NCBI GenBank assembly: GCA_000934665.2
Contig: KZ538304.1
Coordinates: forward strand, 1 to 64,000
Length of the DNA: 64,000 bases
Source: Catajapyx aquilonaris
Taxonomy: Eukaryota
Reading direction: 5' to 3'
Shown: in pieces, positions 49,292-64,000 of the stretch
How positions within the stretch are numbered: the stretch's first letter is position 1
Layout of the letters: every line of letters starts with the position of its first letter
Program-made: the position numbers and the translations under genes
The notes under the pieces: generated by a model
The model's input: the letters and a program-made list of their open reading frames with translations, nothing else
Databases searched by the model: none
Told to the model about the DNA's origin: nothing

Positions 49292-50081
49292 TCACTTTTG
49301 ACTGGCTCTCTTCCCCTGTTTCTTCCTGCCTCCTCCTCTGCCCTTCTTCTCCCTGGGCGCCTTCTTCCCAAGCTGAGAGAAGAACCCGCTCACTTTGTTC
49401 TTGTCCTTCTTCCGCTGAGGCCGGTACGTCGCCACCTGCATGCCCAATCTCCTGTCCACCTGTTGGTTAAACATATTGTAAAATACTGCCACGATTAACA
49501 ATGGCGTGAGTAATGATCATTTCAATCACATTAAAAGTCTAATGGAGGTAATCAAGTGAAACCTGTGCCCATTACAGAGCCTCTTTACAATAAAATTAAT
49601 TACATCGCATGTGGGATGCAATTTTTTGGGGGGCAGAAAGTGACATGGCAGATTTAAATGAGTAAATAGAATTCCTGCGGACCTCCTTCTTTTCCTTCTC
49701 AGCTTGCCGCTGCAGCTTCCTTAGGACCTTGAGCTCATCGTACTGCACTTTGGCTTGTCTCTGTGGCTTCCCTCCGAGCCGCACCAGCTGGGCCAGCCGC
49801 GTCTCCTCTCTTTCCGCCTTGTCCATTCCGCCCATGCTGAAGCGAGTCACGTCCCTCTTCAGCCGTATCATGTCCGCCTCCACCGCCTTCTGCCCTGGCT
49901 CCTCCGGCTGGGCCTCCTCGGCCACGGGCTTCTTCTCCGCAACGTCCGGATCAACAAAGCGGATCACTTCAGGTGCTGGGAGAGCCAGGGCCTTCGACGC
50001 TAACGTTGCGACTCTGCCATCGCTGGGGACGGACACCGGCTGCGGACGACGACGCTTCTTCCCCATGTTTTGTGCTGCCAT
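49292..50081 (-). CDS. C1orf131/DUF4602-like basic nucleolar protein (SSU processome factor-like), 2 coding exons
   Basis: Exons 49683-50081 and 49292-49459, phase 0. PEVIRFVDP...KRDVTRFSMGGMDKAEREETRLAQLVRLGGKPQRQAKVQYDEL resembles the C1orf131 core as I recall it (VHRFG...ERAIMLGAKPPK...VNY); Lys/Arg-rich tail. The start may instead be the ATG at 50066. Confidence 0.8.
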
Positions 50082-50644
50082 AAAATACAAACATGTATTA
50101 ATTATTTAATTAATTAATAGTTGTGGTCCACAGATTCAGCTACACTTGTCGATAACATGCTGCAACTAACCGCATGGTTTGTACTCAAACTTGAACTGAC
50201 CCGGGTGCCACTAACCCTTAAAACTGACCAACACCTAACCATCAGTCAGTGACCCCAACTGACCTTCTGACCTGCTTAATTAATTAGGAATAAAAATTTA
50301 AACACAATTTAAAAAAATCACCAAGTGAATCCCACGCAGCGCCGAATGAAGCGGCAACTCACTCCGCAATGCTGCCAACCGAACCGAATAGACATGCATC
50401 CTCACTCCGCAACGCGCCACATTTGAAATAATAATAATAATCAAAAAGTAATATTTTCATGCATTTCATGCGGGTTTATTAGTTGGTAAGTAATGACAGT
50501 AAATATGGAAGTTCCAGGTAATCCGTTACATGCACTGAATATGCCAATTTTTTCCATAGAAAACATGCTAATTGTCATAAAATGGATACAATTCGAAACA
50601 GCAGCCTTTAAAAAGCAATACGTTAATTTCCTTCCGAAATGATC

Positions 50645-56863: not shown

Positions 56864-59800
56864 CTATTGACACCCGTCTTCAGAGACGTACAGAGCTGGG
56901 AAGTATCCGATCTGAAAATGTCAATATTATTACAAGTTTGTTCGAACAGGGCAATGCGATCGAACTTACTCTTTCCCCGATCTGGCCCTTCCACCACCCT
57001 CTACTTCCCCCTTCTTTGCTCAGAATGGTCACGACATCTCCCTTCTTCAGCGGCAACTGGTTGGCTTCAGACGCATTGTAGTCGTATATCGCAACGGCAT
57101 GGCAATGGTACGGCCTCTCCAACGTTGCGTCCAGCCTGAAACGGATTCATCAGAGTTCCATCCCGTAACTGCAAAATGCATCTGACTCACCCGCTAAAGT
57201 TTTCCGAGAGACTGTGCTGCTCGTACCAGTTGATAAGTTCGGGGATGGACCGGAAGTACCTGGACTCCGAGAGATAAAACTTCCTGCTTCCTACACCAGC
57301 GCCTTCAAGCTCAGGTGTCCAGAATATCTTCATGTGCTTCACCTGGTCGTTTGTCCTGCAGGTTCAATCGGTTAAGACAGTCGCTCAAAAGTACGGGCGT
57401 ACATAACTTACTTGAGACTCAGCGCATATCCCGACTCGTCCTCGTTGGTCGGTCCTTGCGGCCTTATCCGCAAGAGGAATGTACCAACAGGCTCTCGGTC
57501 AAGCAGCAACGCAGCCACGTTCCGCTCGGTCTCGCCTATGAACCTATTCGGCAAAAAAAAATTAGCACACTGCAGCCTCTAAAAGTGTGTCGCAACTCAC
57601 CAGGAGAACTCCTCCAAGTTGCACAGATTGATGTAGTCTAAATGTGATGTCTGCGTCGTAAGCAGCGGGGGATTCTCCGGAAACGACGGTTGCTGGAAAG
57701 TAACAGTTGTAAATCCGGTACGTTGCAATACAGTGCGATTATTCCTTACTCTGTGGTGTTCTGGACTGACGGGTGTGTTCTCCCCTGACGTGATGGATGG
57801 CCCGGAGGGCGACGGGGTTGGGAATGCGACTGGAGCAGTTGGCCTCATGGGGGAAGGAGGCGGACGTGGAGGAAGGTCAGGGGGACGGCTCACCCCACAT
57901 CTGCGAGCTGTGGCTATGCAGGGCTTGTGGACGGAGGTCTTGCAGCGGGCGCAGCAGTAGCCCTGATAGTACAAGCACATTGAAGTAACACTCATACGCA
58001 AACATGGTACGGAGAGCCCACCTGATAAAAGAGGCCTTTGAGCAACTTCCCGCATTCATCACAGGTTGTCGGCTTTTCAAATGTGTGCATCTCAAATTCG
58101 TGGTCGCTACCTTCGCACTCGCTCGGATGAATGTTTTCTCTGAAACCAAATATGGTTCGAGTCAAATCGTACGGCAAATCAGCGGCAATGTAAGCTCACA
58201 GTGCGTCTTGAATGGCTTTGATCCACCTCCTCTTCTGCTCCTCGTTCCTGGCGTGCATCGTGTAGGCCATCTTCTCCTGCCGATGCACCAGGTACCAGTG
58301 GAAGGTCCAGCGTCCATCGCGATTCATCACCCGACGGTTGATCACATCCTCGACTTTGTAGTCTTGCAGGCAAAGCGAGTGTCGGTAGCTGTGCTGTTCA
58401 CCCTGCAGCCAACAGTGCAATTTAGCTCATCACATCGACGTGAATGGGACACATATCATGCAGCATCGTTCTGTTCCTCTCATCGCCCAACAGGTTTAAA
58501 AGCCATGCTGTGGTAACCCACATGCAATGAAACCTCGTCCAATAAGATTACACGTACACACATTTCATGAAAGAGGAAATTAACCATTATTGTGCGTTAC
58601 TTGCAAATCGAAAGAACCCTTCAGTTAAAATGCGTTAGGCATGAAAATTTACTTGAGTGAAATATTACTGTACTTGTGCATTAAGCTGCGTACAAGTGCA
58701 GTTTCAAATGAACCGTTACATACACATTTATCAATCAGGTGGCGATTTAAATTCTCATTAACGTATCAAACACCAAGCATTTACAGATAATGCCCCTGAA
58801 ATATTTACCCAGCATGCACACTCATAGCAGGTGCGTAAAACATTGCGACCTTTTCACTGCGAACTGCGCACATCGGACAACGATGCAACGCCGAACTTAA
58901 TTCCTAACATTCGCAACATTTAGAAACACCCAAACTACTATTTACCCCAAACAGTTTATCCACCATCTTGACGAGGCAAGAATAAAGAGAAACGCCTGGT
59001 TAAAACACACACACACACAGTACGCAAAAAGTGTAGTTAGTTAAAAACACACAACGTGTTTCCCTGCTAGTCACAATATTAAAAAAACGGTGATATTCCC
59101 GTCACAAATGTTCAGGGATTGGCTCCCCACACACGGTGTACAAATATTTTTAGTGACAAAAGTGGCCATCACAAAACAGCTTGCTTCTAAAAAAAGAAGC
59201 CACACGACAACTCCCCGGGACTTGCCTACCTGAATCGAAACATACAGCTGACTATCGTCACCTGTTAGACTCCAGCGTAAAAAATTCCTCGAATTCGCCT
59301 TTGGCTATATGGAAAACATATGTGGGGGAGGGAGGAAAACAAGTATTTTAATGGCATGTTTGACAATATTTTTTTCCTCCTTTTAAAAAAGCACAGCGAA
59401 TCATTTCGTAGTATATAGTGACAAAACAGGACTGCTGGCCAGAATTTTTTTTTAAAAAAAAGCAAAGCCACAAAATAGATGTAAACTAATCATATACAGT
59501 ACGGCTGCATTGAAGAAAAGTCGGGACAGAATTAGCAAGAAACACGAGACTGAAAATAATGCAAACTCACCCTTGTTGTCTTGCACATCAGCATCACTCG
59601 ATCGAACACAAACACATATCTGCAACAACATCTCCGTGTTTATAATGGCCGCACACTTTGCCTTACAATGTTACGCACCTCAGCTTCGGCCTGGTGTCGT
59701 CATGGCAGCGTATCTTCAACTCCCCGTCTTTCAGGAGCCTCCCGTAGTCCTTCAGTTCCGTGTTTTCCGGCATGTTCCAGTCTGATATGCTTGCCTGCAA

Positions 59801-62462
59801 ATCCGCAAATTAAACCTCGAAAACTCCGCACGTACGCACCGGCCGTACCTGAATATCGCTTATGATCTGAAGCGTCTCGCTATCCCTCTTGACCTCGTTG
59901 ATGAAGTTGGCAACGTCTCTCATTGCGTCAAGAGCCTTCTGAAGCCCCACGAAATCAGAGTGAGCCTGCAACGTCATTCAGGTCAACGCCAATTCAACAA
60001 GACATTACACCAGATCTCACCTCCTGAGTCTCGCCGATCAGTTTGTCCAGCAGAAGGTGGTACTTGAGTATCCGCTGCATCGGCACGGACAGTACGTCTC
60101 TCAGCCTGAACCTCCCGTCATTCGCTTCCTGCTGACACTTCTACAAAACATGAAAAATTAAAATTAAAATTACGTACAACGCAACATGCTTTCGGTACGA
60201 ACGTACCTGAACTTTCTGGTTGAAAAAATCATTCTTGCTGCACATTTCTTCAACTAGTGACTGGGCACGAGGCAGGTTGGCACAGTAGTCACCGTAAAGC
60301 ACGAACTTATCCTTCCAAGTGAGGAAAGCATCGCTGAGACGATGGCTGCTGCACGGTACGCACGCCTTGCACAAAGCGCTGTGGAATCCCGTGTGGATCT
60401 CGGCCAGTTCCTGAACAAAAAATTAAAAATATTAGCCATCGGAAACAACACCAAGCTAGAAAAAAAACTGTGCCAATTTTTTGTTTTGTTTAAACGATGC
60501 AAAATTCATCCTTCGTATTAATTTCTGTTCAATACCTTAACGCCAAAGAAGATAACTTTCCGGTCCTCTTCGCGCATGACGGCACTCAGCGGACGCATGT
60601 ACTTGAGCTTGATCATGTTGAGCGCCTCCATGTAGTTCTTCTCAGTTTCCAACAACTCCCGGCAAATGTAATCCCTTTTCTCCAATGCGGGCGAAACCAA
60701 TGCCGGAATCTAATCCCCACCCATTGAAAGCCATCAATGCAACGCTTCGAAGGGATTAGCCCATTTTCAAAAGAGTGATATTTGCACAAGCCGGGGATTG
60801 CAAATAACGAGCATGCTCATGCTTCTACCTGATTGTCCGCGGGACTGGACCTCTCGGCCTCAATGCAGCATAGATCCTGGTAAATATCTTCTTCAGGACA
60901 CACCATGGAGTAGTAGTCCTGCCCACCCCCACCTTCCTGTTGAAGCTCCGCAAACGTGGCGTAGGTGTCCTCGCTACAAGAATCACACACAAACAAACAT
61001 GCATCATGCTACACCGTGCGGAGCATCTCTGCGAAATCATCACGTTACTCATCGCAAAGAAGCTCCGAACAATGCTGGGTCATCGGAACAAACCAAAACC
61101 TCACCTTCTGGCTACCAGCATCGCACAGAGTCAAAAGAGAGAACCGAAAGACACCATGCTACAGGTTAGGGATTCAAGGAATTTACCCCACATGCTCGGA
61201 TTGTGTAAAAGGTACCTGGGTGGTTCTAAAGGTGACATAGCAGAGGTCTTCATAGATCCCTTCCTCTGAATCGTATGAGGGAAGCTGTGCCCAGGATTGG
61301 CCCCCGGGGCAGACCTGAAGACGGTCATACCCTGACTCAGGGGCCGGGGAAGTAGGGAAGTTGTCGCTGAAATAGGACGATTCATGACGAAGGGGAAAGA
61401 AGAAGTGAAGACGGGGAAAAAAAATAGCCAAGGTTCATCTGAAAGTCACCATGAAAGTCAAACGCAGCTGACGACAAGTGATGTGACAGACAATTCCGCA
61501 ATAGTACATTACCATCGATTACTAAGCAGCGCTTTTGTCGGCAACTGCGCATTAGAAAATAATTCGACAACTCCGTAACTTTTGATCAGCATAAGGCCAT
61601 TAACGAAGAAGCAACTAATTAGCCCAAGTTGTAAGTGCATTTACTTCCCGAGTCTCATGTAACAAGCACTCAATTAAATCTGTAAAGGTCAAACGGGCAA
61701 CTTTAAAAACTTCACAGGAAACTACATGTTACTCGCAATAATTAAGTTTGCACTGTTCGCAAAATCCATGCGTTTTTTTAAAAAAAAGAAACTTCCACCG
61801 AATACCACAGAAGTTGCAAGGTTAGGAAACTTTTATTAGTGGTCTAATAATAGTTGCACTACTGCAAGGGCAGACACTTTGACGTAGAAACAACACATCT
61901 GAGAAAATCAACTGACTCACTTCCTACCAAAGGAAAGAAAAAAAGTTTTTTTTTAAAAAAAAGATGATATTAAACTTACTTGGCCAAATCTTCCAGCCGC
62001 CTGTAAATTTCCTCTTCCTGGACATGATTCTGATGATTCTGGACAGCGAATCCCCTGGAGAAAAACAAAGGAAAAAAAAACAACCATGAGCTGACCTTCC
62101 GAGAGGTGAAATATGTCAATGTCAACAGGGCAAGTTGAGAAAATAAACCATTGGTGAAAGAAACAAATGTGACGGAAGCGACATGTCTTTTCAGAAGGAT
62201 TGGCACATTTTTCAGCTGGCCTTTTCCAGGAAACAAGGCGGCAGCTTCCCCCCTCCGACAATATTGATCCGCACAAAAAAACTTACTTGATCCCCTTCTT
62301 CTGAGCCTTGGGGCAGTTTGAGAGCTTGGACAAAGTGTGCAGGACCCGAGCAAAGTCCGTCAGGTCAAAGAGCATCGACGGTTCAAACAGGTCGGACTCC
62401 CTGAGCTCAAACATGTTCCGGCTGGTCTGCAGGAAGGTTCGGATGTTCCTCAGGCACAGGAA
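56864..62462 (-). CDS. Vav: Vav guanine nucleotide exchange factor (5'-partial; first coding exon lies beyond the window)
   Basis: Phase-consistent GT-AG exons in transcript order: 62287-62462 (FLCLRNIRTFLQ..., CH domain); 61980-62054 (EEEIYRRLEDL); acidic exon 61216-61366 or 60829-60973; DH 60536-60709, 60207-60410, 60021-60140 (LRDVLSVPMQRILKYHLLL), 59849-59965 (INEVKRD); PH 59679-59794, 59571-59619, 58200-58402; C1 58022-58139 (HEFEMHTFEKPTTCDEC), 57750-57962; 57601-57692; SH2 57412-57543 (GTFLLR), 57191-57355; SH3 56970-57135 (AIYDY...GWWKG), 56864-56911 (IGYFPALYV...stop). Confidence 0.97.
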
Positions 62463-63209
62463 CTACAACCGGAAAGGAAAATATATATTTTTAAAAGCAT
62501 ACAAAATAAATACGAGCGGAACATGCATTTAGCCAATCTATAGTTCCAGGAAGTCTATTTTTGCACCCCCTTTTTTTTCTTCTTCTAAATTTTTATCTCC
62601 AGACTTGCGAACGCCAAGTGTGGCAATAAACATTCCTCTCTCTGGGCCACCCCCTGGCATGGCTGAAAAATTTGGTTGAATTCCATTCCAACTCCCCCAA
62701 GCTATCTGCCTCATAGTAAAGATACCGCAAATATTTGCATTGTCCTCGCACGTACGACAAAACACACATCCCCTTTATCAGAAGAACATAACCGCATTAA
62801 TTACTGACGCGTACACCAAGAACATGCACATGGTAAGAAAACCTGGCCAAACAAACGTTGCCTTTCATTTAGGGAAGATGGTAACCTGTTGCCACGATTA
62901 CCAAATCAAAGCAGACAAACTTCGACTTTCATATAGGGATTATTATTATTAAGCGATTGATTCCGCTTGCAAAATGTCATCTTCCTTCCCTACACCGGGC
63001 CTTATCGGGGGGCCAGTACTTTTCTTGTTTTCTCTGACGACACTGGATGTGATATGCAAGCAGATAAGCCACCTTTTTTATAACTACTTTCCTCGTCAAA
63101 CTATTTTTTTTTCCCCTGTAGTTCCTGGAACCAGCACCTGTTTTCCCCTCTCTCTCTCGACGCCATGTGTGTACGCACACCCTTCTAGATACGAATACTG
63201 GCAGAGCTC

Positions 63210-63774
63210 TTTGCATGGGCACAAAACTTGTGCAAAATTATTGGTACAATACTGGCACAAAATGGGCATGAAAATGGGTAGGAAATGGGTACAAAATTCA
63301 AATGAACCTGGCACAAAATGGGTGTGAAATGGGCGCACGAAGGCTATGAAATTGGTACGAAAATGGCAAAAAAAGGGTATAAAATTGGCAACAAAACAAG
63401 CACTAAACATGAACAAAACCAATTTTAAAATGGATATGAAATAGGCACAAAATTGGCAACAAGATGCGCACAAAATGGGTACGAATTTTGGATATGAAAT
63501 TGGCAAAAAACATGGGCACACAAAAACAGGTACAAAAAATTGATGAGAAATTGGCAAGAAATGGGCACAAAATTGGCATGAAAAGGATACGAAATTGGTA
63601 TAAAACAGGTACGAAATGGGCACGACAACGGCACAAAATTGGTACAAAAATGGGAATAAAAAAAAGGGGTGGGAAATGGATACAAAATGGGTACATGAAA
63701 TTTGCATGGGTACGGAAAATGAGCACAGAAATGATACGAAAATGGTAAGAAATGGGTAGGAAATTGGTACAAAA
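63210..63774. repeat. Degenerate short-period (~11-12 bp) satellite
   Basis: Variants of aaattggcaca / aaatgggtacg repeated across ~560 bp. Confidence 0.85.
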
Positions 63775-63989
63775 TCTATAATATTAAAATCCTTGCGGGA
63801 GTTGGCCGAGCCCTCTGATTGGTCCGCCGCATATTGTTACCGCCACCTCCCCATTGGCCCGCGTTCTACTCATGCGCAATTTGGTGTAAACAACTCCTGT
63901 TGGGTTGCCGGGGAAACTGTCTATTTCCCGGCGATATGGTGCGCCGAATAGGTACCCCAGGCCGTAGTTCTAGACAAGAGTTTTCCTAG
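63775..63989 (+). mobile_element. Non-autonomous Helitron-like element (in the Vav intron upstream of 62462)
   Basis: a|TCTATAATATTAAAAT...ttttcCTAG|t: TC start, CTAG end, inserted between A and T, no TIR or TSD. Confidence 0.8.
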
Positions 63990-64000
63990 TGGGACGTATA

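Follow-up and report, generated by a model that had tools for sequence, protein, structure and literature searches.

A probable pair of mutually exclusive exons for the autoinhibitory segment of Vav in Catajapyx aquilonaris

Introduction

Vav is the textbook guanine nucleotide exchange factor (GEF) activated when an autoinhibitory helix is phosphorylated on tyrosine, and invertebrates carry a single Vav gene. We describe here two neighboring exons, termed A and B, that appear to encode alternative versions of the region holding this helix in a Vav-type Rho-GEF gene of Catajapyx aquilonaris. The gene lies on the minus strand, in the last 8 kb of the window, which is the whole stretch of 64,000 nucleotides (nt) analyzed (GenBank assembly GCA_000934665.2, contig KZ538304.1, positions 1 to 64,000 of the forward strand). 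Exons A and B are, in our judgment, probably a tandemly duplicated, mutually exclusive pair within this single gene.

The acidic-region phosphosites of Vav1 are Tyr142, Tyr160, and Tyr174, and until it is phosphorylated, the Tyr174 helix masks the face of the DH domain that binds the GTPase, according to the available portions of the Bustelo review (PMC4601183). The same portions mention splicing only as unspecified "alternative splicing events." Splicing near the RhoGEF domain has been described for zebrafish vav2, in which a 15-nt neuronal microexon gives a form whose activity in an SRF reporter assay is approximately threefold higher (PMC12626424, available text). Mutually exclusive exons that arose by tandem duplication are recognized by the criteria of Pillmann, Hatje, Odronitz, Hammesfahr, and Kollmar, published in 2011 (PMC3228551, available text).

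Results

The exons and introns that make up the locus of the pair are listed below in the direction of transcription; a slash marks an exon border here and throughout.

61980..62054, minus strand: constitutive upstream exon, 75 nt (acceptor from the contig joint 62053 to 62286, cut +1; donor from sequence)
61367..61979, minus strand: intron between the upstream exon and exon A, 613 nt (from sequence)
61216..61366, minus strand: exon A, an A-type acidic-region exon of 151 nt, 50 codons plus 1 nt (from sequence and A-type profile score)
61187..61215, minus strand: open read-through after exon A, 29 nt, ending GGG/gtaaat, a candidate alternative donor in frame with exon B
60974..61215, minus strand: intron between exons A and B, 242 nt (from sequence)
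60829..60973, minus strand: exon B, a B-type (canonical) acidic-region exon of 145 nt, 48 codons plus 1 nt (from sequence and a contig joint at its donor)
60710..60828, minus strand: intron between exon B and the DH exon, 119 nt (skipped by a contig, GT..AG ends)
60536..60709, minus strand: constitutive downstream exon, 174 nt (Pfam RhoGEF; contig joints 60709 to 60829 and 60409 to 60535, cut +1)

Exons A and B are neighboring internal exons with 242 nt separating them; a CH-side exon precedes the pair and the first DH exon follows it. The upstream exon carries EEEIYRRL and ends CAA/gtaagt, leaving 2 nt of a codon, and the downstream exon starts in phase 0 at 60709 and encodes a linker (...LEKRDY...) followed by the start of the DH (RhoGEF) domain. 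Exon A is bordered by tttcag/C and CAG/gtacct and encodes a peptide (P0001) with SWAQL...EEGIYEDLCYVTF; exon B is bordered by cttgtag/C and CAG/gtagaa and encodes a peptide (P0002) with EDTYATF...DYYSMV...EEDIYQDLC. Their phases are equal, 1 nt completing a codon at the start and phase 0 at the end. The exon coordinates, the sizes of 151 and 145 nt, the leading C, the CAG/gt ends, and the peptides quoted in a preliminary description of this DNA all hold in the sequence and its translation.

The lengths of exons A and B are both 1 mod 3, so that including both exons or neither shifts the frame. A frame table computed by script is open for the upstream-A-downstream and upstream-B-downstream forms and meets stops when A is joined directly to B, when both exons are skipped, and when A is extended and used alone; the earlier statement that direct A-to-B joining breaks the frame is thus correct. 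Reading on from exon A into the A-B intron meets a stop after 10 codons. The traits of mutually exclusive exons found in the pair are similar length, the same type of splice sites, the same phases, homologous peptides, and a position as adjacent internal exons. Use of one exon per transcript is seen here only as the junction from B to the downstream exon and, in relatives, as A or B in 9 of 11 beetle species.

The RNA-level data are contigs of one public sequencing run, and these contigs are spliced. They contain 10 joints, every one GT..AG on the minus strand, which comprise eight downstream introns, the intron 62053 to 62286, and the junction 60829 to 60709. The last of these, which the preliminary description had named for mapping, links the donor of exon B to the DH exon in a contig that covers 60829-60926 and ends inside exon B. 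The upstream contig ends at 61990 and no contig covers 60927-61989, and the run is therefore silent on exon A and on junctions 5′ of exon B. A further contig from this run spans roughly 62509-62579 and continues with 255 letters that match nothing in the stretch; it may represent another exon or another transcript.

The proposal that exons A and B are paralogous and share EExIYxDLC is borne out by BLASTP, which aligns their peptides with 10 of 24 identities around the shared EE-x-IY-x-DLC (E = 4e-4), and by a Smith-Waterman score of 45, against 23.4 ± 4.9 for shuffled B, which 11 of 5,000 composition-preserving shuffles reach. Profile hidden Markov models built from the segments of relatives match only exons A and B on the minus strand of 60000-64000, with no third exon copy, and the 613-nt intron upstream of exon A has no profile match to either exon type. 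Exon A scores 32.7 bits on the A-type profile versus 17.0 on the B-type, and exon B scores 18.2 bits on the B-type profile versus 12.5 on the A-type. The exon A and exon B peptides, too short and divergent to serve as direct queries, gave no match among longer proteins. Among PDB sequences they retrieved no Vav chain; exon B had no match at all, and exon A with its read-through had only two chance-level matches to cadherin-23 (E about 1.5).

Relatives were collected with a HMMER scan using the 67-residue DH exon, which returned 199 proteins at E ≤ 1e-3. The best DH-exon identity is 59% and the best full-length match 56%, and the closest full-length relatives are, by name, arthropods. In RefSeq, vav isoforms X1 and X2 of the boll weevil (Anthonomus grandis) are identical except in the acidic segment, which is A-type in X1 (...VYDDLCYVTFQ...) and B-type in X2 (...EEIYQDLLVV...). 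A/B pairs of RefSeq "protein vav" isoforms are found in 9 of the 11 beetle species examined, with both types in Anthonomus, Tribolium, Euwallacea fornicatus, E. similis, Rhynchophorus, Cylas, Diorhabda carinulata, D. sublineata, and Harmonia and the A-type only, among the proteins listed, in Coccinella and Phyllotreta. A-type isoforms are annotated in all 11 species, and no beetle protein lacks both segments among those listed with a readable acidic region. The segment signatures in beetles are ...Y-x-DLCYVTF for the A-type and ...EEIYQDL... for the B-type.

Single models that hold both segments, A-type then B-type, were found in Timema (stick insect), Eumeta (moth), Tribolium (KYB24949), and Cylas (X1). 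Such co-occurrence is confined to models that read through the whole intron, and no relative isoform has a short linker between an A-type and a B-type segment. An ostracod protein (P0038) carries only an A-type segment between the flanking exons, like the upstream-A-downstream form, and a barnacle isoform (P0027) carries only a B-type segment, like the upstream-B-downstream form; the junction residues are conserved in both. The DH exon starts at residue 249-283 in full-length relatives, which fits one segment of ~50 residues and not two.

In the A-type alignment (n = 14; 13 beetle and 1 ostracod sequences), every sequence has the Tyr174 equivalent and the Cys that comes next, along with a second Tyr (CYVTF) and a Thr, and an upstream W..F.IP motif is nearly invariant. 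B-type sequences conserve little past EEIY-x-DL, an uneven comparison with the A-type in that the B-type alignment is taxonomically broader; they keep the Tyr174 equivalent and, in some species, a Y160-like tyrosine as well. As had been suggested, the tyrosine sets of the two exon types differ, with the extra invariant CYVTF tyrosine in the A-type and the Y160-like tyrosine in some of the B-type.

The tyrosines were placed by a phmmer alignment of the barnacle B-type P0027 to Vav1 chain 6nf1_A, with 3ky9_A second in the table. Tyrosines of the acidic region fall at 6nf1_A chain positions 145, 163, 177, and 195, and the first three correspond to Tyr142, Tyr160, and Tyr174 because they have the same 18/14 spacing. 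The DEIY/EDL tyrosine is Tyr174 (chain position 177), in agreement with the earlier equation of the IYEDL tyrosine with Vav1 Y174; the alignment rules out a placement of Tyr174 within TEYDKR. The EE-x-IY-x-DL motif of both exons, directly before the DH domain, is the Tyr174-type motif. The constitutive upstream exon holds the counterpart of Tyr142 (in EEEIYRRL), the homologous motif of P0027 standing opposite chain Tyr145, and Tyr160 maps to the first half of the B-type exon. Since the swapped segment holds the Tyr174 helix, the A/B swap exchanges the autoinhibitory helix together with its flanks.

Further variation around the same region was observed in relatives. Two proteins encoded by a single gene of the annelid Owenia fusiformis, P0052 and P0209, are identical downstream (724 identical residues in 750 aligned columns, the remainder gaps) and have different, homologous Tyr160/Tyr174 segments immediately ahead of the DH domain. 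Because the N terminus of P0209 is incomplete, the difference reflects either another, independent exon swap or the use of an alternative first exon; given this alternative copy, the acidic-segment position may have been duplicated more than once. Six proteins (P0013, P0019, P0023, P0036, P0064, and P0137) run from a non-CH N terminus straight into the A-type ...EEDIYEDLCYVTLR motif (CYVNLR in P0064), and the named species within this group are the acariform mites Brevipalpus and Sarcoptes. The A-type signature may thus predate the chelicerate/pancrustacean split and may go with an alternative promoter.

Isoform pairs that differ by a single Gln are present in Tribolium (X1 versus X2 and X3 versus X4), Rhynchophorus (X5/X7 versus X6/X8), and Cylas (X2 versus X3). 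The difference falls where the exon following the swapped segment begins (...EQPQ... versus ...EPQ...) and looks like a NAGNAG-type acceptor choice that is freely combined with either exon type. The barnacle vav-like isoforms X12 (P0027) and X8 (P0153) differ solely in a 24-residue insert in the PH-domain region; Vav in the barnacle lineage therefore has further cassette exons.

The remainder of the gene was delimited with Pfam and the spliced contigs. The domain matches and the CH-domain exon are as follows.

62287..62464, minus strand: CH-domain exon (Pfam CH match and spliced contig joint from 62286/7 to 62053/4)
62283-62462, minus strand: CH (Pfam, E = 3.4e-4; 21.2 bits, below the cut-off of 26; partial exon)
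60518-60709, minus strand: RhoGEF (Pfam, E = 2.8e-7)
60141-60422, minus strand: RhoGEF, second exon (Pfam)
58196-58426, minus strand: PH (Pfam)
57992-58195, minus strand: C1 (Pfam)
57187-57363, minus strand: SH2 (Pfam, 22.9 bits)
56880-57146, minus strand: SH3 (Pfam)

The order CH, RhoGEF (twice), PH, C1, SH2, and SH3 on the minus strand is, over these domains, that of Vav. Against Vav1 structures, P0027, a relative that the DH-exon scan retrieved, gives E = 4e-125. Judged by these sequence matches, the gene is a Vav family Rho GEF. The first CH exons are outside the window: 15 contig letters upstream of 62464 match nowhere in it, and earlier CH exons therefore lie past its end. Five of the 10 Vav introns confirmed by spliced contigs are only 54-66 nt long (58140-58199, 59620-59678, 59794-59847, 59965-60019, and 60141-60206); long introns by contrast are the 613-nt intron from the upstream exon to exon A and one of 827 nt (58402-59228).

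Two other open frames in the window were recorded, both on the minus strand. A 246-codon frame at 63096-63836, upstream of the last CH exon seen, encodes short Phe/Pro/Ile-rich repeats and overlaps tandem arrays with periods of 11, 22, and 33 nt (63547-63775); it is probably intronic repeat DNA and not coding. Long frames are few in the first 56 kb; one of them, a 169-codon Lys/Glu/Arg-rich frame at 49596-50105, may be a small gene of its own.

Discussion

Under the mechanism that we propose, each mature mRNA would take either A or B after the constitutive upstream exon and before the first DH exon, and the chosen exon would contribute the portion of the acidic region in which Tyr160 and the Tyr174 helix lie in Vav1. 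The reading frame would enforce exclusivity, with both exons or neither leading to early stops and, presumably, nonsense-mediated decay. We infer that exon A is used in C. aquilonaris and that transcripts with both exons, or with the exons skipped, are degraded. The products would share the core EE-x-IY-x-DLC and differ in its flanks, exon A giving the conserved arthropod W..F.IP...Y.DLCYVTF version, with a second Tyr five residues after the first, and exon B the canonical version with Tyr160-like tyrosines upstream. These are likely to be two differently gated GEF forms that differ in the strength of autoinhibition and/or in the kinases and SH2 proteins that read the segment. Steric exclusion does not apply, because the A-B intron, at 242 nt, is too long. 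Inverted repeats were considered as evidence of a selector and rejected, being short and 74 to 91% complementary. The central proposal of the preliminary description, that exon duplication gave mutually exclusive isoforms, is supported by the sequence features of the pair and by the agreement of the beetle A/B isoforms.

Several observations weigh against this proposal. The exon A junctions are absent from the sole sequencing run, in which 61980>61366, 61980>60973, and 61216>60709 were not seen. A further form is open in the frame table, in which A is extended to the GT at 61187 (180 nt) and followed by B. The assignment of exon B to the B-type is weak, with a margin of 5.7 bits, and the RefSeq X-isoforms of relatives are automated models. 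Selector base-pairing was not detected among the three introns, for which 54, 8, and 12 dinucleotide shuffles out of 100 attained the best duplex energies. In AlphaFold2 models of Tribolium X1 (A-type, residues 145-205) and X3 (B-type, residues 145-199), the predicted local distance difference test score of the acidic region is <50, which makes the models uninformative on how either version docks. A complex prediction pairing the DH-PH-C1 core with the A-type acidic segment scored 0.00 without controls and is evidence neither way.

If only exon B were used here, exon A would be an unused relic (pseudo-exon) of an old duplication. The only junction of the pair that was observed does involve exon B, and the B-type is similar to the single, canonical acidic segment found in annelid, priapulid, and bivalve Vav. 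However, the frame of exon A is intact, a good pyrimidine tract precedes its AG acceptor, and it ends at a GT donor; exon A also reaches its 32.7 bits on the beetle/ostracod A-type profile even though the DH exon is only 45-59% identical to relatives. An unused exon A should have decayed past recognition, because the DH-exon identity is so low. With A-type isoforms annotated in 11 of 11 beetle species as well, we regard a relic as unlikely.

Exons A and B might instead be included together through the donor at 61187, giving one long acidic region with two IY-x-DLC motifs. The preliminary description was right that this donor keeps the frame into exon B: no stop interrupts the 29-nt read-through, which ends GGG/gtaaat and restores the frame. 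Yet about two-thirds of random 10-codon stretches are open, which makes this weak support; the relatives offer no isoform with A and B joined by a short linker, only whole-intron read-through models, and the DH-exon residue positions of full-length relatives fit a single segment. Joint inclusion is accordingly quite improbable. That A and B look alike by chance, as two low-complexity acidic stretches of which one is not an exon, is scarcely credible: the alignable core is indeed short, at 24 residues, but only 11 of 5,000 shuffles match its score, the phases, borders, and size agree, and both exons have type-specific counterparts in relatives. The mutually exclusive pair is the reading that we favor.

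A broader claim is that the pair is an ancient switch, at least pancrustacean, between the canonical Tyr174 helix and a DLCYVTF version with a second invariant Tyr, so that one gene would yield two GEFs with different kinases or a different hold-off strength. We consider this plausible rather than probable. The switch may even be arthropod-wide, given that the CYVTL/F signature is also present in acariform mites. Were a conserved swap of the Tyr174 helix to be true, the setting of the switch would be chosen at the RNA level, whether in the kinases that open Vav, in the tightness of its closure, or in the SH2 proteins that bind afterwards. An ancient switch would be a splicing counterpart of the vertebrate Vav1/Vav2/Vav3 split. 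The gain is a specific hypothesis and not a new principle; if true, it would add a regulatory layer beyond those in the available portions of PMC4601183.

Alternative acidic-region exons of Vav were not described in full-text literature searches or in the supplements of PMC3228551, a search that did not extend to the Drosophila-wide exon catalogue of 2013, and no report was found of alternative versions of the acidic segment in vertebrate Vav genes. The A/B vav isoforms of relatives are already present in automated RefSeq annotation, and the splicing device itself is known and ordinary.

The closest counterparts are the A/B isoforms of insect "protein vav" (Tribolium castaneum X1/X2 versus X3/X4, Anthonomus grandis X1 versus X2), which belong to the same family and have the same two segment types. 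These lie at the same position, from the Tyr142-type exon to the DH exon, with one type in each isoform and the order A then B in read-through models. The exons in the window are longer, at 50 and 48 residues compared with 41-48 (A-type) and 32-39 (B-type) in insect vav, and the gene is not close to the insect species, with a best DH-exon identity of 59%; relatives were compared at the protein level. With the exons treated by Pillmann et al. (PMC3228551, available text), A and B share length, splice sites, frame, homologous peptides, and placement as neighboring internal exons; they differ in that their exclusivity can be explained by frame incompatibility alone, with no steric hindrance and no competing pairing detected. 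On the Vav1 model of autoinhibition (3KY9, 6NF1, and 1F5X; PMC4601183, available portions), the swapped segment aligns with the stretch that holds Tyr160 and the Tyr174 helix. The zebrafish vav2 microexon (PMC12626424, available text) is likewise a case of splicing beside the DH domain that alters Vav output; it is a cassette microexon, whereas the change described here is a swap of homologous exons.

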